IMG/VR virus record: IMGVR_UViG_3300032225_001090
Coordinates: 1-42,769 of that record
DNA: 42,769 nt
Reading direction: 5' to 3' (one strand)
Source: a virus
Taxonomy: Duplodnaviria; Caudoviricetes
Shown here: in pieces, positions 2,773-42,039 of the stretch
Position numbering within the stretch: position 1 is the first letter of the stretch
Layout of the letters: every line of letters starts with the position of its first letter
Notes under the pieces: generated by a model
The model's input: the letters and a program-made list of their open reading frames with translations, nothing else
Told to the model about the DNA's origin: nothing
Databases searched by the model: none
Position numbers and translations under genes: made by a program

Positions 2773-2992
2773 TGGATTCTTCTACAATCTGTTGAACATA
2801 TTCAGAAAAATGTTTTCTAATACTACCAGATGGTCTATGTCCTGCAACTTTCCAAATTCTAGTATATTCAGCTATATTGGCAAATGTGGTTGGACAAACT
2901 GGTGTGCCATGATAATCTTTTAATACTGTAGGAAGCGGAACATGCTTTCCACAACATTTACATTCTTTAGCTTTTTCTTGATATATACTCAT
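2744..2992 (-). CDS. Small Cys-containing hypothetical protein
   Basis: CKCCGKH...VCPT; ATGA overlap with the terminase stop. Confidence 0.7.
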   Translation of the reverse strand: MSIYQEKAKECKCCGKHVPLPTVLKDYHGTPVCPTTFANIAEYTRIWKVAGHRPSGSIRKHFSEYVQQIVEESIDKNDDGTL

Positions 2993-4794
2993 ATTATTGT
3001 CATCCTATCCATAACGTCTTTTAAGTTTTCTGGTATTTTTGGTGCACGTACCATATTTTGTACGTATTCTTTTTCTCCATCAGGAGCTGTTCCAAAATCA
3101 TTATCATATGACATTGATTCATATGTATGTATATTTATTTCTTGATCATTATTAAATCGAGTTCTACTAATTGAATTAAAGATAGATCCACATACTGCAT
3201 CTGCAAGGTCTTTAGAACCCTTTCTTGGGTGATCAACTCTATCTCTCATAATTTTTAATTGAAGTAATTCATCTATAAGTAATGGTATATGTGGTCCATT
3301 TAATCTTTCTTCTAAAACAATCATAGCCATATCATCATAATGTTTTTTAGCAACAGAAAGAATTTCAGTATTAATACCATATTGCTTTAATTGCTGCATC
3401 ATATCATGAGAGTTCCATCTATCGAATGTACATACTCCAATATTGAATCCACGACTTTTTAATGAGATTATATAATCTTTTACCTCAGTAAAATCTACTG
3501 ATTTATCTGGTGTAGGAGTCCAATATCTAACTGCATCTACACTTACTATAGGTGCTGGCTGTGAATACTCATTAGTAATTTTTACATTTACCCACCTATC
3601 TACATGAGAAAGTGCTACAGCACAATGGTCGTGCTTTTGAGCCAAATCTACGTGAATATAGTATTTCTTATCTGGATCTGGCTTGAACCAATCTTCTAAT
3701 CTTCCAAATTGATCTACTGCTACATTGCCAATATTAAATGCCTTTTCAACTTTTTCTCGTGACTTAAAAAATGCATCAACAGCATCTGATGGCATACACG
3801 CAAATCTACCAAGTGCATCTACTGGATTTTTATAGAATGCTACCTTAAAATCATCTATCTTTCTTACTGGATTAATTTCCCATGTTGGTCTTTTAAGAGC
3901 AAACATCTTAGGATACTTATATGAAATGATATGATCTTCTTCCCATTCAACATCAAATTCATTCCCTTCCGTTCCATCTGGCAAATCTTCATCTAATTTA
4001 AAATGATGAGTTCTAACAATAACTTCTTTCTCCGCCACAACATCATCGTACCTTTGCTGAATATAATCATTTTTGTATCTAGGGAAAGAAAGCAAAATTA
4101 CTTTACCAAAGTCTGGAAAACGAGAATCTACTGATGCCCTATACATATCATATATTGCACTGCCAGTTTTTGCCTGCTCATGACCACTTGTATTTTCTGT
4201 AGCAAAACCTGAAATTTCATCGAGAATAATAACAATAACGTTATAACCTTCCCAAGCTTCTCTTTCAGAGTGACCAGAGTGTACTGTTATTGCCTTATCA
4301 AATTTAATCTCAGAGGCTTTTGGGTCATACCTGCCAACAAACCATGGAGACTTATCTATACGTGTCTTAAAACCCTTAAAGAAGACGTTATTAGCCTGCT
4401 GTGAGTTGATTGCAATGTTAATAATATCAATTGAATCTCCTGGAGGTTTTCCATAATAAGTAGCTGGATCTTTCAAGCACAATAGTAAATAAACTATATA
4501 GGCTACCGATATTGTGGAGCAATAATCTTTTCCAGATCCCTTACCTAATTGTGCAACAATTTCATTTGCAGTTTGTTTAAACATTCTTCTGCCTTCATCA
4601 TCGCCAAATAATTTGATGAGGGTTGATTCTTTATAAATTTGTGAGCTTTTTTCAATTAAAGTATACTGATATTCAGATAATGGAGGCAAGCCTAAATAAT
4701 CTGGGCTCTGAACAAATGTTCTAAGATCTACTGGCTTTTCTTCAAACTCTTCGCCATCCAATATGTCAATTAAATCATTAAAATCAAACGACAT
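2989..4794 (-). CDS. terL: Terminase large subunit
   Basis: Walker A LGKGSGKD, Walker B IILDE, RNase H-like HVDLA, TFDRW, KDLADA; likely start MSFDF at 4794. Confidence 0.93.
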   Translation of the reverse strand: MSFDFNDLIDILDGEEFEEKPVDLRTFVQSPDYLGLPPLSEYQYTLIEKSSQIYKESTLIKLFGDDEGRRMFKQTANEIVAQLGKGSGKDYCSTISVAYIVYLLLCLKDPATYYGKPPGDSIDIINIAINSQQANNVFFKGFKTRIDKSPWFVGRYDPKASEIKFDKAITVHSGHSEREAWEGYNVIVIILDEISGFATENTSGHEQAKTGSAIYDMYRASVDSRFPDFGKVILLSFPRYKNDYIQQRYDDVVAEKEVIVRTHHFKLDEDLPDGTEGNEFDVEWEEDHIISYKYPKMFALKRPTWEINPVRKIDDFKVAFYKNPVDALGRFACMPSDAVDAFFKSREKVEKAFNIGNVAVDQFGRLEDWFKPDPDKKYYIHVDLAQKHDHCAVALSHVDRWVNVKITNEYSQPAPIVSVDAVRYWTPTPDKSVDFTEVKDYIISLKSRGFNIGVCTFDRWNSHDMMQQLKQYGINTEILSVAKKHYDDMAMIVLEERLNGPHIPLLIDELLQLKIMRDRVDHPRKGSKDLADAVCGSIFNSISRTRFNNDQEINIHTYESMSYDNDFGTAPDGEKEYVQNMVRAPKIPENLKDVMDRMTII

Positions 4795-5320
4795 TGGCAT
4801 CCTCAATTACAACTGATTCAACTATACCAGTAATTTGTGAAAGCCTCTTAGCAACCTCCAGTTTACATTTTGGACATGTAGAAGTAACCTCTTTTAATAT
4901 CTTTACAAGCAGTTCTTGTTTGCGTTCTGTTTCTGCAATTTGAGAAGCAATCTCATTAGTTTCTAATACCCCAACAGACTGAAGCATAGAAATTCTTTTA
5001 GTTTCTATATCTGCAATTAACTTTAATGCTCCAGATTTAATTCCTAATTGACCAGATTGATCAGCATCTTCAACAGTTTTCCAAGCCTCTTTGATAAGCA
5101 TTGCGTAGTGTTGATCTGCACCAGAAATAGCTTCTTTAGCTCTATCTCTAATTGCATTATCATTATGAACTACCGATTTCCATTCATCAATAAAGGTAAC
5201 AACTTCTTTGCGGGAAAACCCTGTTATTGTAGCAATTTGGGTAGCACTATTCCCCTTAAGTAGTTCTTCAACTACTTTATTCATTCTATCAAAATGCTGT
5301 GTTAATTCTATTTCAGCCAT
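4784..5320 (-). CDS. Probable terminase small subunit (N-terminal HTH)
   Basis: SATQIATITGFSRKEV HTH plus helical body, directly upstream of terL. Confidence 0.65.
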   Translation of the reverse strand: MAEIELTQHFDRMNKVVEELLKGNSATQIATITGFSRKEVVTFIDEWKSVVHNDNAIRDRAKEAISGADQHYAMLIKEAWKTVEDADQSGQLGIKSGALKLIADIETKRISMLQSVGVLETNEIASQIAETERKQELLVKILKEVTSTCPKCKLEVAKRLSQITGIVESVVIEDANVV

Positions 5321-5702: not shown

Positions 5703-6227
5703 TCACTTTTCCGCCTTATCAAACTTAGCCACAAAAACTCCAGTCTGTGGGAACTCTTTATATTCTACTATATAATTGAATTTTTGCAATACCCTTTCTG
5801 TAGACCAATCTTCTTCTACATGAACTTCATAAGGATTACCATTGATGGCATCTTGATGATAATGAATAATTGGTATTGATATAATTGCATACATTGCTTG
5901 CTTAGATACCTTATCCCATATCTTAAGCGCATCTTCTTCTGTCATATGCTCTAGAATGTCTCCAAAGATAACTAAATCGTAATTAAAATCTTCTACATTT
6001 CTTACATCGTCCTCAATAATTAAATCGTATCTTGATGTTAAATTAAACTGCTCTATGTATGGATGCCAAACTTCTACTCCAGCAACATACACTGCATCTC
6101 CAACATATTGTTTTACTATATCAAGATAAACACCTGCACCTGCTCCGCAATCCAGTACCGTACGTGGATCTATCTCCATTATCTTTTCAATTGTCCAAGG
6201 CTTGTTGGTTGGATCAGATGTCCCCAT
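5703..6227 (-). CDS. Class I SAM-dependent methyltransferase
   Basis: VLDCGAGAG, GVEVW, YDLVIFGDILEH. Confidence 0.9.
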   Translation of the reverse strand: MGTSDPTNKPWTIEKIMEIDPRTVLDCGAGAGVYLDIVKQYVGDAVYVAGVEVWHPYIEQFNLTSRYDLIIEDDVRNVEDFNYDLVIFGDILEHMTEEDALKIWDKVSKQAMYAIISIPIIHYHQDAINGNPYEVHVEEDWSTERVLQKFNYIVEYKEFPQTGVFVAKFDKAEK

Positions 6228-29911: not shown

Positions 29912-31645
29912 CTATGCTAAAGATCGACATGTAATTGAGGTCTCCAATCCTTCTGAATAATTATGCCTAATTGATGTTATTATAAACTTTTCGGTACCCG
30001 CCGTCAGCCCTTGGTACGGATAAACAATATTAATTATATCTCCAACGGAAATCAATGGATTGCCAAATACATTTAAATCAATTATACGTCCTTTATTTAA
30101 TGCAGTTCCTTTAATCCAGTTAGCAAGTGATTTAGCATCTTCTTCTGTTTGAATCCAATTAGTTGTAAAGGTTATTGGCTCTTTAGATTTAGAGTCTACT
30201 ACATCTTCTGTAGAGTATTCTAAGTCTCCAGATTTACTTATAGTGTTTCCAAAAGCATAGTAACTTGAATATTGAGAGTCATCTAATGCCACATAAGCAG
30301 AAGAATTATTTAAAACGTATGCCTCTCCGCCAAATGGTGAAAGCTTTGACCCCAATACTTTAACATACTGATTATCTCCAACTGAGAATTTAATTGGCTT
30401 AGCTGGTCTGCTATCAAACTTTACCTTCGTCTTTCTTATTTCTCTGGCCACAGTTCCAAATTCTTCTACTGAGCCAGCCTTTAAAGTAAGTTGATCATTT
30501 GTTAAATTTTGATTATATAACATATCTCCGTATAAAAATGAAAGGGTGTCATTTGAAAATTGTCCTTGGTAAACATTTAATTTACTAGATGTACTTGTTA
30601 TATATTGATTTTCAGTTATTGTCATTGCATATACATAATCAAAATAACTTGAGCCAGCGCCTGATCCCAATGCTACCGTTTTAGTAATTGGAATAAGAGG
30701 ATTACCTTTAGTATTAGAAGTTGAAGGAAATGCAAAAGTATCTACGGCGGTTATTTTAAATCCATTTATATAAGCAACTATTTTTACTTCTGATCCAGAT
30801 ACCTTTACCTTTGCATCTATTGCATAAGCTCTTCCGCCATAAACTCCATTTAAAGAATTTAATACTGTAGTTTGGCTATTTTTAATTTCAGTCATATCTG
30901 AACCAGATACTCTAACAATTCTTACTTCTCTTTTATTAGCTTTGGCAGCAGATGCAGTTGTGTCAATTAAAATATAATAACCAGTATTTCCTTTATCTGA
31001 AATAAAAAATCCAAAACCAGCTGCTTGAACTGGGTTAGTTATAATTTCATCCATATATAAAGTTGTTCCAAATGAATACCATTGAGTTGAAGCATACGAT
31101 GGCTGTTGAACGGTTACACCATTTGGTCCAGCAATTGGAACAGATGTTTGTCCAACTAATGATATATTTGCAAAATCTTTATAGGCCAAAGAGTATGTGT
31201 ATTTTGTTTTGCTAGAATTACTTAATTTTAAAAATGATTTACCAACTGATAAATCTTGAATTCCAACTACAGAATTATTAGCCAATGAAGCAGTTTTAGA
31301 TGCAATTGGTAAAGTATATTCTACTGTAATTGATGATCCATATTTATCTACTGATGATATTGTTCTATGTGCTGTTAATGTAATTAAATAAGTTCCGCCA
31401 GCTGTTAATGAACTTATTGTAATTGGAGTGCTAGCAGATTGAATTTCTGTATATGTTGGAGTTACTGAATTAGATCCAACTCTAATTAATCCATAAGAAA
31501 CTACATAATTTGTAGGAGCAATAGACATATTATAAATATTAGGTTCAATTGAAATTGAATTAAAAGTTGGTTGAGATATTACTGGATTATATATAAAATC
31601 TAATCCTGGATAAGTTCCGCTTTGAATTATGTCTGGTGGATACAT
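29912..31645 (-). CDS. Minor tail protein (tail-tip hub C-terminal part with lectin-like insert)
   Basis: C-terminal WIQTEEDA..FGNPLISVGDII pattern; likely start MYPPD at 31645. Confidence 0.7.
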   Translation of the reverse strand: MYPPDIIQSGTYPGLDFIYNPVISQPTFNSISIEPNIYNMSIAPTNYVVSYGLIRVGSNSVTPTYTEIQSASTPITISSLTAGGTYLITLTAHRTISSVDKYGSSITVEYTLPIASKTASLANNSVVGIQDLSVGKSFLKLSNSSKTKYTYSLAYKDFANISLVGQTSVPIAGPNGVTVQQPSYASTQWYSFGTTLYMDEIITNPVQAAGFGFFISDKGNTGYYILIDTTASAAKANKREVRIVRVSGSDMTEIKNSQTTVLNSLNGVYGGRAYAIDAKVKVSGSEVKIVAYINGFKITAVDTFAFPSTSNTKGNPLIPITKTVALGSGAGSSYFDYVYAMTITENQYITSTSSKLNVYQGQFSNDTLSFLYGDMLYNQNLTNDQLTLKAGSVEEFGTVAREIRKTKVKFDSRPAKPIKFSVGDNQYVKVLGSKLSPFGGEAYVLNNSSAYVALDDSQYSSYYAFGNTISKSGDLEYSTEDVVDSKSKEPITFTTNWIQTEEDAKSLANWIKGTALNKGRIIDLNVFGNPLISVGDIINIVYPYQGLTAGTEKFIITSIRHNYSEGLETSITCRSLA

Positions 31646-33555
31646 TAATACCAACTCACATCGTTTTGCTGCCAGCTAGATAATACATCGTTTGGAGCTT
31701 TACTATGAGGTGCTGGAGTAGTTCCAAACATTCCTCTGCCTTTAATTCTATATCTGCCCGTAGGTTGAAAATATGCAGATGTTGGATCAGTTAAATTTCT
31801 ATATCCAGGCTTAGATAAATACCTATACTTATTTACATCTGATGGAGATGTTATCCAAACATTATATTTTATATTAGATGTGTTTGGATTTCCGCCTACT
31901 AATATTGGTTCGTAAGAATATTCCATTGCATCAAACTCAATTACTTCAGAATCAATTAACAAAAATCCATTATAACTATACAATGCAGTTACATTAGCAT
32001 AATAATCAACTACACTTGGGTTTAAAACAATTTCCATACTAGTATTAGTTATTGTTGCAGCTAGCGCACCTGCACCAAGGTAGGTGGTATCTGATTTCCA
32101 TAATGGACTTGCAGTGCCATAATATTCAGAACTTACTGGAGCATTCCAAATTACAGTTACATAGTTACCAGAGGGTATTTCTCTTTGATTTAATGAAATT
32201 ATATTTGAAAGGTCTGAGCCATCTGTTTCAGATCTAAATGTCCATACAGAATTTTGAGAATACATTTTTTCTCTACTATAAAATTGAAGAATATTATTTT
32301 CATCAAAAAATGCGTTCATTTGAATATCTTGACATAATTCTTGTAAACACTGCCATACAGTTTTTGTATCATCTGTCCACCAGTATTTAATAAATGGTAC
32401 TGATGCATCTTCGGTATTTAAATTAAAATTATAATTAGAAAATCCAACTGCATCTAAAAGTCTTCTTATTACTGCGGTAGCTAAATAGTTATCACATAAT
32501 ATTTCTGGGGCAAAGGTCTCCTGTAAATATTTAGCGCCATCTAGTCCACTTATATTTACTTCATCAAATTCTCCAAGTACCCAAGAACTCATATAAAAAT
32601 TTCCTTGAGGCAAAGAATATGTTGATGCTCCGACAACATTAAAATATGTTTTTATTTCAGCATTTTTAAATAGATATAAAGCATTTTGATCTATTGCATC
32701 TGATCTATTATATTCTTTTATTGTCTTAGATGTATAATTATATTTTGCAATATCCATGGATAATGAATTTGATGTTATGCTTCCAACTGGAATAATTGAT
32801 TCTGCATCTGCACTAGATTCTTTTACAATATCTATTGTTACTATGTCTGAAGTAATATCTTTTACCCATCTAGGAGAAACTTCTATTACTCCTAATACTT
32901 TTCCTCCGCCTGGATTTACTGCAGTAACAGCAAGCTGTCTTATGAGGCTTTGAGAAGTGTATGTAGCAGGCTCTGTAGTAGACCATGTTGATCCATTATA
33001 ATATATTACTGCCTCACCATTTGAATTTAATACGCTATCTGTAACTGTAAATACTGTTGTTCCAGTAGATGTCTTGCCAGTTATTGTGCAAGATGTGGGG
33101 GTGGAATGAAATGTTTCAAATCTAACAATAACTTTATTAGTATAAATATCTTTTGAATAAACTATATTGATTGAAGCATTAGTATTTTTAGGAGTTATCC
33201 AATATTTATAAACAGAATCTTCTCCAGGCAAATAAACTCTTGGCTGGTTGGTTGGATAATTTAATGCTCTAATTGATGAAAAAGATTGGCTAGGAGTATC
33301 TGTATTTCCAGTAGTATATACTAAATATTTAATTCCAGGCTTAATTGGTCTAAATGGTTTAAGCACAGATTTTACTGGAAATGATTTTGAATAAGCATTT
33401 ACACCATTGATAACTGGATAAGAAATTCCTGGAGTTGTTATTACAATATCATCTACCATTGAATTTAGATTATATTCAATAGTCGCAGAGGTATTCATTG
33501 ATATATTATAATTAGATTTAAGAAGTGATTGAAGCGTGGTATCTGTTGAAATCAT
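31645..33555 (-). CDS. Minor tail protein (tail-tip hub N-terminal part)
   Basis: TVWQCLQELC..FFDENNILQF hub-type motif; second gene after tape measure. Confidence 0.7.
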   Translation of the reverse strand: MISTDTTLQSLLKSNYNISMNTSATIEYNLNSMVDDIVITTPGISYPVINGVNAYSKSFPVKSVLKPFRPIKPGIKYLVYTTGNTDTPSQSFSSIRALNYPTNQPRVYLPGEDSVYKYWITPKNTNASINIVYSKDIYTNKVIVRFETFHSTPTSCTITGKTSTGTTVFTVTDSVLNSNGEAVIYYNGSTWSTTEPATYTSQSLIRQLAVTAVNPGGGKVLGVIEVSPRWVKDITSDIVTIDIVKESSADAESIIPVGSITSNSLSMDIAKYNYTSKTIKEYNRSDAIDQNALYLFKNAEIKTYFNVVGASTYSLPQGNFYMSSWVLGEFDEVNISGLDGAKYLQETFAPEILCDNYLATAVIRRLLDAVGFSNYNFNLNTEDASVPFIKYWWTDDTKTVWQCLQELCQDIQMNAFFDENNILQFYSREKMYSQNSVWTFRSETDGSDLSNIISLNQREIPSGNYVTVIWNAPVSSEYYGTASPLWKSDTTYLGAGALAATITNTSMEIVLNPSVVDYYANVTALYSYNGFLLIDSEVIEFDAMEYSYEPILVGGNPNTSNIKYNVWITSPSDVNKYRYLSKPGYRNLTDPTSAYFQPTGRYRIKGRGMFGTTPAPHSKAPNDVLSSWQQNDVSWY

Positions 33556-33556
33556 A

Positions 33557-34030
33557 TTAAACCTCTACCATTGTTAAAGACACATTCCAGTGTGGTTGCT
33601 CTCCTCTTTTTACCACAGTAAAAGAGCAGTTGCTAAACATCACATTGTATTCTTCATAGCCAGAAGATTCCTGGCTTGTTCCATTCTTTGCAAAGTTTAT
33701 TCTAATCTTAAATGCGGTGCGGCCTTCTGTGCTATTATAAAATGATCTTAAATCTTCTGCTCCCCAGGCTCCGTCTACCGTGTATGTCCTATATGATGGT
33801 ATTAAAGTCCATGACAAATCAAAAGATTTTTTGTCCGCTACAAAATACTTTCTTAATGTTCCATTAGCCATTCTTTGAGACTTTTCAATTCTTTCATTAC
33901 TTAAATTAAATTCAGATCTATTGTGCTCTGTAACCTTATTCCAAATTAATGTGGTGCCAGCCGTGGGAGTTGCTAAAAGATCTTTTGCTTCTATAAGGAG
34001 AATGGATCCTTTAGGTAATGTTAATGCCAT
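33557..34030 (-). CDS. Distal tail (Dit-like) protein
   Basis: RMANGTLR, LSW, VSLTMVEV; immediately after tape measure. Confidence 0.7.
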   Translation of the reverse strand: MALTLPKGSILLIEAKDLLATPTAGTTLIWNKVTEHNRSEFNLSNERIEKSQRMANGTLRKYFVADKKSFDLSWTLIPSYRTYTVDGAWGAEDLRSFYNSTEGRTAFKIRINFAKNGTSQESSGYEEYNVMFSNCSFTVVKRGEQPHWNVSLTMVEV

Positions 34031-37000
34031 TATTGTCCACCCCCAAAGGTTCTCTGTACGCCGTTACGTGAATCACGTAATCTCATTTCTCTTGATATTG
34101 CTTGTGCTACATCATTTGGATTTAAATCAGAACCATTAAGAGTAACATTTATATTATACAAAGAATTGCTTGATGTTGCAAGACCGCCAGTTTCAAATTT
34201 CATTCTTGAATTAGATGATCCTGGCACATCAAATCTTGCTGCTAATCCACCTTGAGCCATTCTATTAATTCTATCTAGCATTGGAATACCAGCTGCCTGA
34301 ACAGATTTAGCATTTATAACATATTCACCATTTGAAAGCATTGCTGGAATTGAATCTGATGTTCCATTTCCTGCTCCAAATACTGCACCACCTGAAGCCA
34401 TTTTAACTCTTGCACCTAATTTTTTATTTTTTGAATCATAATAATATGTTCCGCCAACATCATCTACTGCATAATCTTTCCCTCCAAAGGAGAATAGTCT
34501 ATAGTTGGTATCTAGTCCAGCTGGCTGGAATCTACTACGTGATTCAACTGCAGCATTTTTTGAAGCGGCTGCTAGATTTTTACCAGATATAACTGGAATA
34601 CCAGATTGTCCAAATGTAGTTCCTGTTGCTGCATTTGGTCTAGCTGCTGGAGTTCCATCAAGTTTTTTGCCATTAATAATAATATTACCACTGCCCATAA
34701 TAATTCCTTTATCGGACAATGCTTTTGTAATAGCATCACTTGTTTTTGTAGCCAAATCTAATCCAATGTCTGCTGGATTAGTTCCTTTAAAATTATTATA
34801 AAAAGCAGGCGCTACAACTTTAGGAACTGTCACTCCTGCTGTTTTTGAAGTAGATGTTACTAGTGCTGCTCCGCCCCTACCTTCTGCAGTTTTAATATAG
34901 TCTCCTGCAGTTTTATTAGCGTTTTCTGGAAGAGAAAGCCATGCACGTAAATTAAGATTAAATGCAGATATTGCATTATTCACAGCATCAATTTTATCTT
35001 TTTGTGCTTGAATTGCTGGTGCAAGATTAGTTAATTTTTCTCCAGCTAATGCTGCTGCATCTGATAATGCTTGATTAGCTTTATCAAGTGCTTTTAATCT
35101 TTTTTCTAATGGAGCAACATCTGCTGCTCTTTTTTCTTCAATTGCATTTAATCCCGCTTGTTGTTGCTGCTGATTGACAAGGCCCTTTATATCTAATTGA
35201 GCTTGTGCTGCTCCAGATAAATTACCAGAAGCCATCGCATCAGAATACTCAAATTGCTTCTTTTTAATTTGAAGATTCACATCTTCTAGAGAAGCTTGAT
35301 CCTGAAGAGCTTTGCTTCTTGCAGCAGCCTCTTTATTAATTGCATCAATTTTTGCATTAATTGATTCTACTTCTTTGCGAGAATTAATTTGTGCTTGAAC
35401 AGATTGGCCTTTAACAGCTTTATCATATTTTGCTTGTAGGGCTGTTAATCTATCTAATTCTTTATATTGCCCCTTAAGAAGTCCATTTTTATTTTGAGAA
35501 ATTACGCTCTTTTCAATAATTACTGAAGCTTTATATAACGCATCTGTTTGTGCAGAAGTTAATGAGGCAAGGTCTCCAGAGTAACCTTTAGTCTGTAATC
35601 TAATTTTTTGCCATAGGCTAACAACAGTATCTTGTGTATTTGCAAATTCTTTAATAAGAGGATTTTCTTTTGCTAGCTCATTAATTGTTGCTTGAGTTAT
35701 TTTAGTTCCAGCCTGCTTTGAATTATTAATTCTTTCTAATTGTGTTTTTTCAGCATCATACATAGATATAATTTCAGTTTTATGTGTTTTATCTGCTTTA
35801 GCAGCTTTTTCGCTTTTTGCTATTATCTCAGATATACCAGAGTCAATGGCTGTCATGGCAGTGTTTAAAGCCGCTGCTTGTGCCTGTCCGCCCTCTGTAG
35901 TAGTAGACTTACCATAAGAGCTAACTGCACCTATTGCGGCTGTCTGAACGTCTGTTATGCGGTTAAATGATTTATTGCCTACAGTAGCAGAAAGAGCAGA
36001 TGATCCTTTATTAGATAATTTAAACATTGTATAAATCTTTTTAGTTGCATCTTCTGCTGACATACCAGCAGCAATTAATTCTTCCTTTAATCTAGTAGCA
36101 ACCTCACCAGTTTTGTTATCTTTTGTCTGATTAATTAATTTAATCTGATCTCCATAAACTGATTTAACTTCTTTTTTAAGAGCCTTATATTGTTCAATAG
36201 TTAAATTAAGAGGAGTACCTGATGAAGCCATGCTCTCATAAACTAATTGATTTCTTTCTTTAAGTGCCTTCATATTTTCAACAACATCTTTAATCTTTGA
36301 ATTATAGTCAGTATATTTTAGTCCCGCTTTTTGAGCAGCATCTGCTGTTAACCCAAAACCTAATGCATTTAATCTATGCTGTTCCTGAAGATCTTTATAT
36401 CTTTTATAAATTAAAGTAGCAGCAATTGTTCCAGCTCCAACAACTAAGTTTAGTCTAGTCATTCCAAGTGCAAGTCTGCCAAGGACCATTCTCCATTTAC
36501 TTCCGCTTGTAACAGCTTTTTCAACTGCCACTCCATAAGAAGATAATAATTTACCATCAGTGCCTTTTGCTGTAGTACCAATTGCTCTAGTCATTGTATC
36601 TGGAAGTTTAGACATAAGTTTTCCAGATCCCATGCTTCTTCCTCCGCCAAGTACTGCACTAGTAGCTGATTGCCCAATTGGGAAACCAATTAGCATTGAT
36701 ATTATATCTCCACCAGGAACTCCGCTTAATAATTTTGAAAGTAATGCCTGTGCTCCAAATCCTCCAGCCATACTTGCAGCACCTCTTGCTAATCCACCAA
36801 ATCTGTACTTAGGAATTATTCCACCAGAATTGCGTGGTACAAATAGCTCTGGACCTTTCTCTCCAACAACATATGGTTGTCCAGCATTTACTGGTCCACC
36901 CTTTTCTCTTCCCTCAAGTTTAAAAATAAGTTTTTTTAATGAATCTGTTACTGGAGTATCTTTTTTAGATTCCCAATTTAAATATTTTTTCCTTAATATA

Positions 37001-40000
37001 TCTTTATCAATTGGAGACAATTGCTTTAATGTATTTCTATCTGAAATAAGATTTGATGCAGCTAATCTTATAACGGCATCTAATGACTCTGGCTCTAATG
37101 CATTTTTTAATGCACCCTTTGAATCTTTAATATAGCCATAAGGTTTTTCTTGTGCAAGTGCTGCAGCAAATTTATCATACAATAACTTTTGAGTATTCTT
37201 TCTCAATCCACTATTTGCAAATAGCTTGTCTGCCATTTCAATTGATAATGAATTTACTCCCCATGGTGCTGATTCATACATGCTAGCTTTTGGAGCACCT
37301 GTTGGACCAAATCCTGCTCCTATGCGACTCATTGCTTTTCCTTTAAATACATTTCCAATTAGTCCGCCAAGATTAAATCCATTTGCCTCTGTTTTAAAGC
37401 TCATATCTCCTAATGATGCTGCATGACCTTTTTGACGTTTTCTTAATGCTTCTGTTTCTTTCATTTTTTGAATAGCCGCTAAGGTCATTGCTTTTTCTGG
37501 AGAAATTTTAACCTGAGAATGAATGCCATGGAACTCTTGCCACTTAACTCCCCTTGCTTCTTCAAGTCTATTTATCATTGAAGCGTACAAAGTTTTTTCT
37601 TCTTTATTTAATTGCATTGATGCAATTGTTGCTTTTAATTTTGGAAGAACAGTATCAATTTCTTTCATCATTGAATTATGATATTCATCAGCAGTCATAT
37701 TCTTGGCAATTCCCACTGTTGATTCCGCAAAGAATTTACGTGCTCCGCCTTTAACTCCTAGTAAATTAATACGTGCTTGATCTGCCATTGATGGCATATT
37801 TTTTTCATATGCTCTAGCTCCTGATGCACGACCAAATACTCCTGCGGGGCCTACGTCTGCAAGAACATTGCCAAATAAATTTGCTTGTTGTAAATCTTTA
37901 TCTCCTCTTAAATTGGCTGCTACTAATTGTCTAAAGTATTCATCTTTTGTAAATCCGCCACTAGGATTAGCAAACCTTGGATCATATGGGGATTCAAGAA
38001 CTAATATTCTTCTACGTCCATGAGGATCTGTTGGATCCATCATTGTTTTAATTGTTTGTTCTGGAGAATGTAGACCATGTGCTTCTCTAGCAATTTTTGT
38101 TGCTCTCATTTCAGCAAGTGCTGCATTGTCATCTAAGACTGGTTTAACAAATACTCTAGTTCCATCTGGTTTTTGATAAAGTCCGCCAATTCCTGGAACA
38201 GGAAAACTATGTCCAGATGTAGGACTTATTTGTTTGCCAAAATTTGTTGGATCAACCTTAGAAAATCTGCCTGACATAACTGCTTTATGTGCATTCTCTA
38301 ATGCTTCTTTTTCTGCTCTTGCTGCCTGTACTTGTTTAAAGTTTTTAATCATTCCTAAGAATAATTTGCCTCCGCCATTAAATCCTGGAACTCTTCCGCC
38401 TTTATTAAATGGCATCATATGAGCTAACCCAGTTGGCTCACCATTAATTCTATAGTTTCTAGGCACATCATAAGTTCTATATGAGCCCATATAGTTTGTT
38501 CCATGTTGTGCATTTAGTGCAATTAATTTATCTATATCAGCAACATTATATGGCTGTAATGGAGTTTCTCCTCTAAAGCCAGATGAATTGCCCTCAAAAT
38601 GCTTGCGTCTTTGTCCAGGGACATTTAGACTACTTAAGTATTGTTGACGAAGCTTTAAACTTTTTGCAATTTTCAAATACTCATCGTGTTGCACCTTAGA
38701 CCAAAGCTGTTCTCCAACTCTATCTTTTCCATTTAATTTTGCAATAATATTATTTCTTGCATTATTTAAAATTTCTTTTGCTTGCGAATCAGGTATATTG
38801 TTTACCTTTAAAAATCTTGCTAATGAAGGTAATGCATGTCCAGGATCTCCATAGCTAAGGTCTGCAATTAGTTCAGAACCTCTAGCGGCACCTCTAGCTA
38901 AAGCTGAGTTATTTCCTGTTCTAAGTGTTGCTCCCCAATTACCTACATAATAATATTCTTGTCCTGTATCCTTTACATTCATTGGTCTCTGATGTGAGCC
39001 AAATGATCTGGCTTGGAATGCAGCTGCTTCTTCAGGAGTTAATCTTAAATTTCTTCCGCCTAATAATTCTGGACTATACTGGCCTCTTCCCATTATTCTG
39101 GCAATTAATTTTTGAATAACTCCACCAACTGCATATCTTCCATTGAAAGATTGTCTATTGCTATTTATAGATTGAAGTAAAGGTAAGTTCTTTGCTGTTG
39201 CTTCTCTATTTACAACAAATTCTCCTGGAGTAAGCATTGCTGGAACTACATCTTTATTTACATTTGGACCAGGAACAGTTGCACTAGATCCATCATTATA
39301 ATAAATTGCTCCGCCAGAATTTCTTCTTTGAATAGGTCTTGTTGTTTCTGTGCTGTAACCTCCGCCAGAAGTCTTTACTCCAAGTGAACGTGCAATCTTG
39401 TCAACTAAACTTGCAGTTGTTCCCTTATGGAACATTTCCTTCATGTTTGATTTTCCAGTCGCTGGATCAATTACAGGTTGATTAGTTAATGGAACAGTTG
39501 TTATATTAGCAACTCTACCCTGACTTGCTGCAACCATAGAAGTTGTTTCTGCAATCATTACCTCAACCTGTGCATTTAATGCTACTATCTTTGCTCTTGC
39601 TGCTTCTACTGTAAGTTTTCCAGCCTGAGTTTGTTTAACAATTGCTTCTGCTTCAGTTGCAGCCATAGATGTTATTTCTGTAATTTGTGGAAGCAATGCT
39701 TTATATGATGTTGTTAATTCATGAGTTACTGTTCCAGCAGATGATACTTCTAACTTTAATGCTTTTAATTCCGCTTCTGACTGCATAGAAAGAGCACCAG
39801 TCATTGCATGCCATTTAGCTGCTTCAGCAGCTACAATACCTGTTGATGCTCCACCAATTGATGTAAGTCCAGGAATTTTTGGAAGATCTCCCTGCATGTA
39901 CATTTGTGGGTTAGGACCAATTTTTCTATTTACTGGAATTGGTCCAGGAACCATGCCAAACATTGTTTGTGCATTTCGTTCTTGTTCATTCATTTTTGAA

Positions 40001-42039
40001 ACTGGATTCATGTGCGAACTAGCTCTTGTTCCATATTCTCCAATTAATGGATGATTTGGATCTGCCATTCTTGAGCCACCAGGCATAACTATTCCGCCAG
40101 CAACTGTAGATAATGTTGGTTGTACTGATATTGGTCCTTTAGCAGTTGATTGTAAATCAACTAAATCTCTTTTTAAATTCTTTAATGCTGCACTTAAAAT
40201 AGATGCTGCTTCAGCATCACTATAAAATGTTTTTTCAATGAATTGTCCAGCTTCATTTGCTGCCATTATTTCTGGAGTTAATAGTTTAAATCCTTGTCCA
40301 CCCTTGAATAGATTTTTAAAGGCATAAACACCCTTTACAATATATCCAAAGAAGTTAGCAAGTACACCAGTTAACATAATAATTGGTCCAGCTAATGCTG
40401 TAAATCCAGCAAATATTCCAACAAGTTGTTTTACTGGTCCAGGCAATTTATTTACAAACTTTAATATTCCATCTACAAAGTTAATAAGTTGAGTATTAAT
40501 ATTAAGGAATTGTTCTCCAACTCCAGCTAAATCTGCCTTTAATCCTTCTAATGCTCTACGATATTTACCTGAAGCAGACTCTGTAACCTGACTTAATTCT
40601 CGTCCAGCAACACTAGCTAAATCTTGACTACTAGCTTTCATTAAATCCATAACTTTTAATGTCTGACTTCCTTGTTTTCCAAGATTCTGGAATAAGGCAT
40701 TCATTCTTGCAAATTGAAATTTACCAAACAATTGCTCAATAGCTTTTTGTTTTTGCAATGGATTTAATGTATCTAATGCTGATTGAAGTTCTAATATTGT
40801 TCCTGTTAGATTACCCGCATTTTTTGTTACTATTCCGCCTAAATCAATTCCAAATCCTTTAAACATTTCTGTAGCAACTTTAGTTGGGTTAATAAGAGAT
40901 GCTAATGAAGATTTAATAGCATTTGCACCTTGTGATGCATCTACTCCACCTTCTTTCATTGCTGTAAGATAAAGTGCTAAATCTTTTACAGATCCACCCA
41001 TACCTTGAACAACAGTTCCAGCTTTTGGAATAGCTTCAATTAAATCTGCAAGGCTAGTTGATGTCTGGTTTTCAACTGCGTTAAGAAAATTAATAGATTC
41101 AGAAAGCTGATCAGTGTTTTGTTTAAATGCTGTTTGAATTGCAAGAGTAGCTTTCATTGCTTCTTGCTTATCAACTTCTCCAAGAACAGAAAGTCTTGTA
41201 GTTTCCTTAATTGAATTAATTAAATCTTTACCAGTTTTACCTGTAGCTGCAATATCTGCAGATAAAGCTAATGTATCATTATAAGATGTTCCATATGCAG
41301 TTGCTAATTCTTTTGCAGTTGCTGCAACTTCTTTTCTTACCTTACCAAGCTCTGCAGTAGATGTGCCAGCAATGTCTCCATAAACCTTTGTTAATCTTAC
41401 AAGTTGTTCGTCTGCAGTTTTAAATGCATTTGCTGCAGCCCTACCAAATGCTGCAATTGGTACGGTTAATCCTACTGTTAATTGACGACCAGCCCATTGA
41501 GTATTTTTACCCCAGTTAATAAGTTGTGCTCCGCCATCTTGAATCACCTTATTATAAATTTGCATCTCTTGTCTTGCTAATGCAGTTTTATTTTTAGTTA
41601 ATTCTAAGCCTCTTGGGATATGAACTGTATATTGCATAATACCCTGGGCATTTTTGCCCAGGGGTTGCACAATTGAATTTTGCATTTGAACCTGCTGTTT
41701 AGCAAGTTCACGAATCATACCACCAGTTGTTTTAGTATGATCCTGCCATGTTCTAAAATAATCTTTTAGTTTTAATTTTCCAGAATCTAAACTCTTGCCG
41801 AATTTATCTACATCTGAACCAAGACTTACAAAGTGGCTAGAATACTGTCCTGTACTTCTTAATACATCTCCAAAAGATTTATTTACCTTCGCTATATTGG
41901 ATGTTAATGCTCTATCTAATCCGCCACTTGCTGCTTGAAGTTGAGTTAGTGCTGCTGTAGCTTTACGCACATTTGCGATAAGACCTGAAAAGTCAGCGTT
42001 AGCTACTATGTTAGTATATATATTTTGTTCTGCAGCCAT
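34030..42039 (-). CDS. Tape measure protein with embedded cargo domains (kinase-like)
   Basis: 2669 aa; TP901-type TMP core at N-terminus, hydrophobic segments, D(V/I)PAML..GE(F/Y)V.N modules; follows tail chaperones. Confidence 0.95.
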   Translation of the reverse strand: MAAEQNIYTNIVANADFSGLIANVRKATAALTQLQAASGGLDRALTSNIAKVNKSFGDVLRSTGQYSSHFVSLGSDVDKFGKSLDSGKLKLKDYFRTWQDHTKTTGGMIRELAKQQVQMQNSIVQPLGKNAQGIMQYTVHIPRGLELTKNKTALARQEMQIYNKVIQDGGAQLINWGKNTQWAGRQLTVGLTVPIAAFGRAAANAFKTADEQLVRLTKVYGDIAGTSTAELGKVRKEVAATAKELATAYGTSYNDTLALSADIAATGKTGKDLINSIKETTRLSVLGEVDKQEAMKATLAIQTAFKQNTDQLSESINFLNAVENQTSTSLADLIEAIPKAGTVVQGMGGSVKDLALYLTAMKEGGVDASQGANAIKSSLASLINPTKVATEMFKGFGIDLGGIVTKNAGNLTGTILELQSALDTLNPLQKQKAIEQLFGKFQFARMNALFQNLGKQGSQTLKVMDLMKASSQDLASVAGRELSQVTESASGKYRRALEGLKADLAGVGEQFLNINTQLINFVDGILKFVNKLPGPVKQLVGIFAGFTALAGPIIMLTGVLANFFGYIVKGVYAFKNLFKGGQGFKLLTPEIMAANEAGQFIEKTFYSDAEAASILSAALKNLKRDLVDLQSTAKGPISVQPTLSTVAGGIVMPGGSRMADPNHPLIGEYGTRASSHMNPVSKMNEQERNAQTMFGMVPGPIPVNRKIGPNPQMYMQGDLPKIPGLTSIGGASTGIVAAEAAKWHAMTGALSMQSEAELKALKLEVSSAGTVTHELTTSYKALLPQITEITSMAATEAEAIVKQTQAGKLTVEAARAKIVALNAQVEVMIAETTSMVAASQGRVANITTVPLTNQPVIDPATGKSNMKEMFHKGTTASLVDKIARSLGVKTSGGGYSTETTRPIQRRNSGGAIYYNDGSSATVPGPNVNKDVVPAMLTPGEFVVNREATAKNLPLLQSINSNRQSFNGRYAVGGVIQKLIARIMGRGQYSPELLGGRNLRLTPEEAAAFQARSFGSHQRPMNVKDTGQEYYYVGNWGATLRTGNNSALARGAARGSELIADLSYGDPGHALPSLARFLKVNNIPDSQAKEILNNARNNIIAKLNGKDRVGEQLWSKVQHDEYLKIAKSLKLRQQYLSSLNVPGQRRKHFEGNSSGFRGETPLQPYNVADIDKLIALNAQHGTNYMGSYRTYDVPRNYRINGEPTGLAHMMPFNKGGRVPGFNGGGKLFLGMIKNFKQVQAARAEKEALENAHKAVMSGRFSKVDPTNFGKQISPTSGHSFPVPGIGGLYQKPDGTRVFVKPVLDDNAALAEMRATKIAREAHGLHSPEQTIKTMMDPTDPHGRRRILVLESPYDPRFANPSGGFTKDEYFRQLVAANLRGDKDLQQANLFGNVLADVGPAGVFGRASGARAYEKNMPSMADQARINLLGVKGGARKFFAESTVGIAKNMTADEYHNSMMKEIDTVLPKLKATIASMQLNKEEKTLYASMINRLEEARGVKWQEFHGIHSQVKISPEKAMTLAAIQKMKETEALRKRQKGHAASLGDMSFKTEANGFNLGGLIGNVFKGKAMSRIGAGFGPTGAPKASMYESAPWGVNSLSIEMADKLFANSGLRKNTQKLLYDKFAAALAQEKPYGYIKDSKGALKNALEPESLDAVIRLAASNLISDRNTLKQLSPIDKDILRKKYLNWESKKDTPVTDSLKKLIFKLEGREKGGPVNAGQPYVVGEKGPELFVPRNSGGIIPKYRFGGLARGAASMAGGFGAQALLSKLLSGVPGGDIISMLIGFPIGQSATSAVLGGGRSMGSGKLMSKLPDTMTRAIGTTAKGTDGKLLSSYGVAVEKAVTSGSKWRMVLGRLALGMTRLNLVVGAGTIAATLIYKRYKDLQEQHRLNALGFGLTADAAQKAGLKYTDYNSKIKDVVENMKALKERNQLVYESMASSGTPLNLTIEQYKALKKEVKSVYGDQIKLINQTKDNKTGEVATRLKEELIAAGMSAEDATKKIYTMFKLSNKGSSALSATVGNKSFNRITDVQTAAIGAVSSYGKSTTTEGGQAQAAALNTAMTAIDSGISEIIAKSEKAAKADKTHKTEIISMYDAEKTQLERINNSKQAGTKITQATINELAKENPLIKEFANTQDTVVSLWQKIRLQTKGYSGDLASLTSAQTDALYKASVIIEKSVISQNKNGLLKGQYKELDRLTALQAKYDKAVKGQSVQAQINSRKEVESINAKIDAINKEAAARSKALQDQASLEDVNLQIKKKQFEYSDAMASGNLSGAAQAQLDIKGLVNQQQQQAGLNAIEEKRAADVAPLEKRLKALDKANQALSDAAALAGEKLTNLAPAIQAQKDKIDAVNNAISAFNLNLRAWLSLPENANKTAGDYIKTAEGRGGAALVTSTSKTAGVTVPKVVAPAFYNNFKGTNPADIGLDLATKTSDAITKALSDKGIIMGSGNIIINGKKLDGTPAARPNAATGTTFGQSGIPVISGKNLAAASKNAAVESRSRFQPAGLDTNYRLFSFGGKDYAVDDVGGTYYYDSKNKKLGARVKMASGGAVFGAGNGTSDSIPAMLSNGEYVINAKSVQAAGIPMLDRINRMAQGGLAARFDVPGSSNSRMKFETGGLATSSNSLYNINVTLNGSDLNPNDVAQAISREMRLRDSRNGVQRTFGGGQ

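Follow-up and report, generated by a model that had tools for sequence, protein, structure and literature searches.

Exchange of whole domains at a repeated peptide joint in a siphophage tape measure protein, and the possible cutting of the protein at such joints

The window analysed here is the whole of the virus record IMGVR_UViG_3300032225_001090, a linear stretch of 42,769 bases (estimated completeness 39%) on which nearly all long genes lie on the minus strand. Its longest open reading frame (ORF), 34030-42039(-), encodes 2669 amino acids (aa) without a single cysteine and is a siphophage tape measure protein (TMP): residues 241-439 match PF10145 (E 1.5e-25, 90.7 bits against a Pfam cut-off of 33.2), the ORF matches TMP families in PHROGs (phrog_10030, E 1e-119), and annotated Streptomyces phage TMPs head the list when 50,697 phage records are searched, with ~34% identity confined to the N-terminal part (aa 5-654). 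Since these are the closest annotated matches, an actinobacterial host can be inferred. We describe three segments of this TMP that are fenced by GG-containing joints and exchanged as whole domains among relatives, and we consider whether the protein is also cut at the joints.

The TMP begins with an N-terminal backbone (aa 1-905, 39325..42039; all features of this gene are on the minus strand), which is colinear in relatives and carries the PF10145 match and hydrophobic stretches (aa 536-568). Joint module 1 (aa 906-973, 39121..39324; RNSGG ... DVVPAMLTPGEFVVN ... YAVGG), of a type common to lambda gpH and Douge gp16, is followed by three cassettes: cassette A (aa 974-1210, 38410..39120), a hypervariable slot; the short double joint FNKGG/FNGGG (aa 1211-1224, 38368..38409), where the homology of relatives restarts; cassette B (aa 1225-1554, 37378..38367), with a predicted atypical kinase fold; the short joint FNLGG (aa 1555-1559, 37363..37377), at which two relatives that lack B, L038 and P0022, resume; and cassette C (aa 1560-1710, 36910..37362). 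The array closes with joint module 2 (aa 1711-1749, 36793..36909; REKGG ... VGEKGPELFVP, RNSGG, YRFGG). Judging from the sequence and from relatives, the middle section (aa 1750-2546, 34402..36792) consists of a Gly-rich hydrophobic zone and then a helical TMP body, and hydrophobic zones (aa 536-568 and aa 1779-1797) flank the array. Joint module 3 (aa 2547-2619, 34183..34401; MASGG ... DSIPAMLSNGEYVIN ... MAQGG ... FETGG) is the usual C-terminal copy, and the C-terminal end (aa 2620-2669, 34030..34182) is, by analogy to T5 pb2C and lambda gpHC, a putative tail-tip plug.

An initial annotation of this DNA had picked out the region 36793..39324, which corresponds to aa 906-1749, and had described segments of about these lengths (237, 330 and 151 aa). 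It had listed ten xxxGG motifs, at aa 906, 969, 1211, 1220, 1555, 1711, 1745, 2547, 2594 and 2615, all of which we find at those residues, together with an eleventh that it had overlooked, RNSGG at aa 1736; a D-x-[V/I]-PAML module, said to occur both internally and at the end, is indeed present at aa 930 and aa 2562. A second, related module type, RxxGG-PV-x2-G-x2-Y-x-VGE-x-GPE-LFVP, begins at aa 1711. The joints thus take two forms, full modules of 40-70 aa (906-973, 1711-1749 and 2547-2619) and five-residue joints (1211, 1220 and 1555). A module profile has exactly three matches in the 42.8-kb record, all inside the TMP ORF, and a module hidden Markov model (HMM) matches the TMPs in PDB entries 8zdo (two copies), 8rk3 and, weakly, 8vjh. 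The pattern [FYM][ANE]xGG, which was picked post hoc, occurs 7 times against 0.46 in shuffled sequences, none of 5000 shuffles reaching 7; plain GG pairs number 38 against 24.7 expected, and most are not joints. Recurrence is a better control than shuffling: the 17 TMPs inspected, out of 70 distinct sequences, share the motifs at these boundaries. In 454 of 633 motif matches the joint opens with R, F, Y or L.

Relatives were taken from two scans, one with the backbone (best 80 of 123 loci, giving the 70 distinct TMP sequences, this one included) and one with the kinase alignment (best 80 of 251 relatives). Similarity to this TMP typically stops at aa 958-975 and restarts near aa 1200-1227, 1553 or 1704-1733. 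For 19 representative TMPs (<90% backbone identity), the array region contains 634 alignment ends, of which 436 are no more than 15 aa from a joint (156 expected), although the ends are not independent of one another and conserved motifs draw them, which counts against this measure. A sharper view is given by DNA breakpoints, for which ten close pairs were compared. In five pairs, whose flanking DNA is 73-97% identical, all ten ends of similarity lie within 6 codons of a joint: the DNA of L043/L064 is 95% identical until codon 997 (joint at 997) and again from 1306 (joint at 1303), that of L036/L019 is 97% identical until codon 993 and resumes at 1254, and L069/L028, L001/L003 and L038/L075 likewise break at joints, the kinase being absent from L038. 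Less favourable to exchange at the joints are L104/L092, with breakpoints 14-18 codons away from a joint, L020/L058 and L101/L133, which yield a left end only (within 4 codons of a joint), and L066/L028 and L077/L091, which are patchy.

Whole domains are therefore exchanged at a fixed peptide tag within an essential structural gene, and this is seen at the DNA level. The initial annotation's proposal that the GG motifs are recombination junctions, making the TMP a swappable carrier, is borne out by these breakpoints, by losses of single cassettes and by replacement of the kinase with another domain; when the TMPs of relatives are aligned, cassettes are gained and lost at the joints and the homologues are not simply colinear. 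Exchange would remain in frame because the joints double as homology for recombination. That all differences in slot A are plain divergence is ruled out for the near-identical pairs by the DNA breakpoints, and an artefact or chimeric assembly is ruled out because L077, L078, L091 and L104 show the same succession of A, B and C.

Of 69 relatives, 16 were too short and were set aside; the other 53, taken to span the array, were scored. Kinase and C are both present in 36 (two of these also with this type of A), the kinase alone in 8 (one of which, L062, is truncated and doubtful), an ADP-ribosyltransferase (ART)-like cassette in 3, C alone in 1 and neither in 5. These states are scattered across a tree of 34 backbones, and the nearest neighbour of our TMP, L004, is without B and C; TMP length among relatives spans 2254 to 3,815 aa. 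In P0022, a protein from a short contig, an A-type cassette joins C directly with no kinase between them. The N-terminal portion of the TMP studied here is nearest to L004/L001 and its middle section nearer to L016/L020, which suggests recombination across the array.

The kinase has also moved between distant TMP backbones. The TMPs of L125 and L159 have backbones 45-46% identical to this one and kinases 61-62% identical, and in a kinase tree of 26 rows, built by a quick method without a test of a single clade, both group with the kinase described here (SH-aLRT 86). In L125 (TMP starting at 5979, aa 615-1055) two direct module copies flank the kinase, with 129 of 174 bases identical (74%), as expected if the cassette had been inserted by recombination at the module. 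A point to the contrary comes from L159, where the kinase begins ~350 aa past the nearest joint-like motif. We also observed a second array in the C-terminal thirds of the TMPs of L001, L019, L021, L038, L051, L003 and L077, with domains that include OmpA (L019), CHAP and LysM (L021), an APH/ABC1-like kinase (L051), a weak, sub-threshold ART-PolyVal match (L003, E 0.027) and many unmatched segments. Most of the 47 segments of relatives that were scanned against Pfam gave no match.

The segments had been called globular-looking, which holds for cassette B, whose model is a globular alpha/beta domain (mean pLDDT 77); cassette A models as compact and mainly helical at low confidence (pLDDT 59). 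The model of B matches CotH (5jda) with a structural Z of 10.7 and a root-mean-square deviation of 4.2 Å over 215 aligned residues, followed by CtkA (3akj, Z 9.8), MavQ (9.1), and PI4K-II and HipA (8.7), the top rows being tied or nearly so; all 50 structural matches listed for the cassette are kinase-like. Residues K1299, E1310, D1382, N1387 and D1395 do not vary in any of the 18 aligned rows, and by the kinase consensus we take them to be the Lys, the helix-C Glu, the D-x4-N catalytic loop and the metal-binding Asp. The strict catalytic pattern is kept in 75 of 80 kinase-bearing TMPs, while the other five deviate mainly beside the last Asp, and two of them also at the Glu. Atlas features of B score 0.90-0.91 to the LepB_N, HipA_2 and PI3_PI4 clusters, with fewer than 170 shared features. 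On the basis of the model, cassette B is predicted to be a kinase-fold domain outside the named families, with its predicted active site intact.

The 77 slot-A segments fall into 21 families, some of which are remotely related. The best structural matches of the cassette A model reach only Z 3.8, in generic helical and ATP-cone-like rows; N1044 and H1207 are invariant in five of five rows of its alignment, and the model is weak at these residues. By eye, slot A of L007, L016, L020, L027, L043, L058, L080, L096, L132 and L144 shows a His ... G-x-A ... Asn arrangement resembling a His-Me finger, and six slot-A families have a motif in register. The idea, likewise by eye, that cassette A is a circularly permuted HNH nuclease was dropped as unsupported: no structural match reached Z 5, an unseeded motif search blended two motifs (246 bits; 202-212 in four shuffles), and a seeded one preferred a different site. 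Pfam HNH found no match among the 23 slot-A segments scanned.

Cassette C is 59-85% identical over 12 rows and in many relatives more conserved than the backbone; the protein matches inspected are long and mostly unnamed, three of them with a TMP domain. In three relatives the kinase and C together are replaced by the ART-like cassette (L005:9675-10475, L016:9900-10634 and L058:9963-10709), which contains L-[HY]-RG, SSWS and E-x-E in this order in all three rows; these we take to be the R, S-x-S and E motifs of ADP-ribosyltransferases. PF03496 matches one of the three weakly (E 0.071), and a search against PDB sequences gave no match. Iyer et al. reportedly described in 2017 polyvalent phage proteins marked by MPTase, ArdC-N and LPD domains; these signature domains were absent from Pfam scans of the whole TMP and of the cassettes.

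The hypervariability of slot A, together with the His-Me-finger-like H...N pattern seen by eye in many of its segments, would suit the view that the cassettes are neutral or selfish insertions, such as mobile elements driven by nucleases, which the TMP tolerates as filler for its length. We give this view very little credence: the kinases keep their catalytic residues, cassette C is conserved beyond the backbone in many relatives, and the scanned slot-A segments match no Pfam HNH profile. The presence of either a kinase or an ART-like domain in slot B suggests modification of host proteins, most likely blunting defence; given this choice in slot B and the fastest turnover in slot A, the slots would serve counter-defence or host takeover. 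The initial annotation had spoken of effectors; as a prediction this stands for B and for its ART-like alternative in relatives, and does not extend to A and C, which have no assignable function.

The annotation had also read the GG motifs as cleavage junctions, and here a comparison with phage T5 is informative. The T5 TMP, pb2, is cut after R1127, as established by mass spectrometry, giving pb2* and the 92-aa pb2C (PMC10038345; what we draw from articles cited by PMC number refers to the available part of their text). The T5 sequence from R1127 onward aligns without gaps to module 2 at aa 1711, with 10 of 25 residues identical, and an ungapped profile built from 29 distinct type-2 modules of these phages gives its top pb2 score at residue 1127 (2.7 bits, the runner-up being -21.2), higher than in any of 300 shuffles. 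In lambda gpH this profile finds nothing. A mixed module HMM picks up gpH residues 733-782 (E 1e-4 when two sequences were searched) and does not detect T5 pb2, which is seen by the ungapped type-2 profile alone. A cut after lambda F733 is computed to give 79.8 and 12.5 kDa, and gpH is reported to mature into gpH* and gpHC, with fragments of ~78 and 14 kDa, the protein being cleaved only once the tail is assembled (PMC12617516); the exact lambda site and the catalyst of TMP cutting are stated in that 2025 paper as not known. A metallopeptidase motif has been described just past the T5 cut (PMC10038345); it appears to overlap the module, and its His appears to be lost in the module of this phage.

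Because module 2 matches the T5 cut site, we place the predicted cut after the first residue of [R/F/Y]xxGG, three residues ahead of the GG. The cleavage claim of the initial annotation thus gains from the homology of the module at aa 1711 with a mapped cut, and is amended as to position. Cutting at the GG itself, in the manner of ubiquitin-like processing, was dropped as a best guess, since the only mapped cut, that of T5, falls three residues before it. From the resemblance to T5 we think it likely that the three full modules (aa 906, 1711/1736 and 2547) are cut, whereas the chance that the short joints (969, 1211/1220 and 1555) are cut as well may fall a little short of even. Module 3 and the C-terminal end would together form a 122-aa, 12.6-kDa piece resembling pb2C and gpHC (PMC10038345, PMC12617516).

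Taken together, we suggest, with a probability of roughly 55%, that this TMP carries three joint-fenced swappable cassettes and is a precursor that is cut after R/F/Y and ejected as separate pieces, including a predicted active kinase. The TMP would be laid extended in the tail tube with its cargo unfolded within it, the 742 aa of cargo at 0.15 nm per residue accounting for ~110 nm of a tail of ~400 nm. The joints would be cut after tail assembly, during maturation, freeing pieces of ~27 kDa (A), 37 kDa (B) and 17 kDa (C). Upon infection the C-terminal plug would exit first, the flanking helical, membrane-spanning parts would form a DNA channel, and the cargo would pass into the cytoplasm and refold there, so that the predicted kinase could act on the host ahead of any phage gene expression.

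The extended, length-adding cargo is proposed because of results on the TM4 TMP gp17, in which deletion of the 114-aa embedded enzyme motif mt3 shortens the tail by ~20 nm, in proportion (PMC1796659). For the same reason the suggestion that tail length should follow TMP length minus cargo probably points the wrong way, as cargo likely counts toward length. One might instead suppose that the cassettes are excised before or during tail assembly, or are carried on the outside of the tube, and take effect late in the cell that makes the phage, with the TMP gene as a convenient site of expression. A folded 37-kDa kinase would seem too big for a channel of 3-4 nm (the width of the lambda lumen; PMC12617516), and the TMPs of relatives vary in length from 2254 to more than 3800 aa, both of which would fit excision. 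The TM4 motif nevertheless counts toward tail length, lambda gpH is cut only after tail assembly, and the cargo is as cysteine-poor as the TMP body; we regard excision as highly improbable.

Several observations weigh against a precursor that is cut at its joints and delivers separate enzymes. The phage group is known from sequence alone, with cuts, virions and activity unobserved. TMPs cut in the particle are known only for T5 and lambda, once each and near the C-terminus, and internal or multiple cuts are not described in the available text of the same source (PMC12617516). The three short joints amount to five residues each, the module body being absent, and the second Gly varies (for example YSEG and FAGGT in L125 and L159). 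Cassette B matches no Pfam family at E <=0.05, with CotH, HipA_C, HipA_2 and PI3_PI4_kinase included in the search, and its Foldseek rows, kinase-like as they are, all have E >1e-3. Cassette A has no match in Pfam, PHROGs, PDB sequences or a single-sequence viral scan, and one homologue in the protein database searched; cassette C has none in Pfam, PHROGs or PDB sequences, and its Atlas scores are <0.8. Finally, TMP cargo need not be released, because the virion RNA polymerase of the Thermus phage P23-45 rides in a TMP, gp96, that is full-size and uncut in virions (PMC10770324) and in which we sought a module match and found none.

This last case leads to the main alternative, namely that the joints serve solely as flexible linkers and points of recombination, that the TMP is cut once near its C-terminus or never, and that the cassettes act while tethered to the membrane channel. 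Besides full-size gp96, it can draw on the fact that the known T5 and lambda cuts are single (PMC10038345, PMC12617516), that DNA homology suffices for exchange at the joints, and that an array lying between the hydrophobic zones at 536-568 and 1779-1797 could loop out on one side of the membrane. We nonetheless consider it unlikely: the internal module at 1711 is the copy that matches the T5 cut site, gp96 has no module at all, and the preponderance of R, F, Y and L at the first joint position fits a recognised site better than a plain linker.

A broader and more tentative extension, which we hold to be somewhat doubtful at present, is that siphophage tails use the GG-fenced module as a general tag for processing, the one at which T5 and probably lambda cut their TMPs. 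In this phage group it would have been multiplied into a polyprotein magazine of several enzymes (kinase, ADP-ribosyltransferase, nuclease-like, cell-wall) that can be exchanged at the tag; these would be loaded unfolded, separated by cuts that the module itself might make, and injected before the DNA. That TMPs can carry cargo and can be cleaved is already known, as are the TMP-like effectors of contractile systems (PMC13277306, PMC11126660); a repeated joint delimiting exchangeable TMP cassettes was not found described in a literature search that covered main texts and few subscription journals. Where and how TMPs are cut has been a question since the early work on lambda and T5, and the joint points to exact candidate cut sites, some of them in phages that have been cultured (lambda F733, Douge, Streptomyces phages). 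Cutting at the internal joints would make the tail tube a route by which several enzymes, made beforehand, are delivered, and candidate counter-defence proteins could then be read from the hypervariable slots; if the reading as a general tag is true, the long-sought TMP cleavage signal would have a name, along with a simple rule for loading chosen proteins into tails. The exchange of enzyme domains at the tag stands even without cutting.

Some further features of the proteins and of the window may be recorded. Cysteine is nearly absent from the TMPs: 79 of them, together with their cargo, have 5 in a total of 225,346 residues, and the large predicted TMP pieces are all basic (pI 9.5-9.8). Downstream of the TMP gene lie ORFs matching the minor tail protein family phrog_10359, in the same order as in Streptomyces phage relatives; the family (1081 profile positions) is divided here between the overlapping ORFs 31645-33555(-) and 29912-31654(-), which cover positions 47-611 and 672-1077. 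In ORF 2989-4806(-), of 605 aa, matches to the terminase large subunit are confined to aa 300-496, and Pfam is silent.

Among known systems, the kinases CotH, CtkA, MavQ, PI4K-II and HipA share the fold (Z 8.7-10.7) and catalytic pattern of cassette B, while their identity to it is just 9-15% and B has no Pfam match. The nearest cultured relatives by N-terminal similarity (30-34%) are Stanwilliamsviridae (Anedea, Yaboi, Muntaha, Tomas and Blueeyedbeauty), which have the same gene order; their five TMPs, of ~2090 aa, contain two weak module copies around a C-terminal segment of 300-380 aa, and differ in having neither an internal array nor a match to A, B or C. Tme and Sle1, from Streptomyces contractile injection systems, likewise combine a TMP-like body with an exchangeable variable domain loaded in the tube, whereas they are bacterial nanomachines with one C-terminal domain, and their main texts, as available, do not mention cleavage (PMC11126660, PMC13277306). 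P23-45 gp96 is a TMP that brings an enzyme acting in the cytoplasm into the cell, as is predicted for the present TMP, and differs from it in its fixed N-terminal fusion, its full size in virions and its lack of a module (PMC10770324).

In TM4 gp17, as here, an enzyme domain is embedded in the TMP and counts toward tail length (PMC1796659). The known cargo of mycobacteriophage TMPs is a cell-wall hydrolase, and a joint motif or exchange rule is undescribed in the available text (PMC1796659), whereas the cargo here is predicted to be of cytoplasmic type. Gp16 of Douge, another mycobacteriophage (PDB 8zdo), has two module copies, at 964-1027 and 1411-1471, and the available text of the Douge study makes no mention of cleavage (PMC13033339). 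Lambda gpH, with 853 aa, a single cut and no enzymatic cargo, differs from the TMP described here; it has one type-1 module copy, at 733-782, and predicted fragment sizes close to those reported (PMC12617516). T5 pb2 resembles this TMP in the sequence at its cut site, which aligns with module 2; pb2 carries one module near its C-terminus, whereas this TMP has three modules, short joints and an internal array of swappable cassettes.

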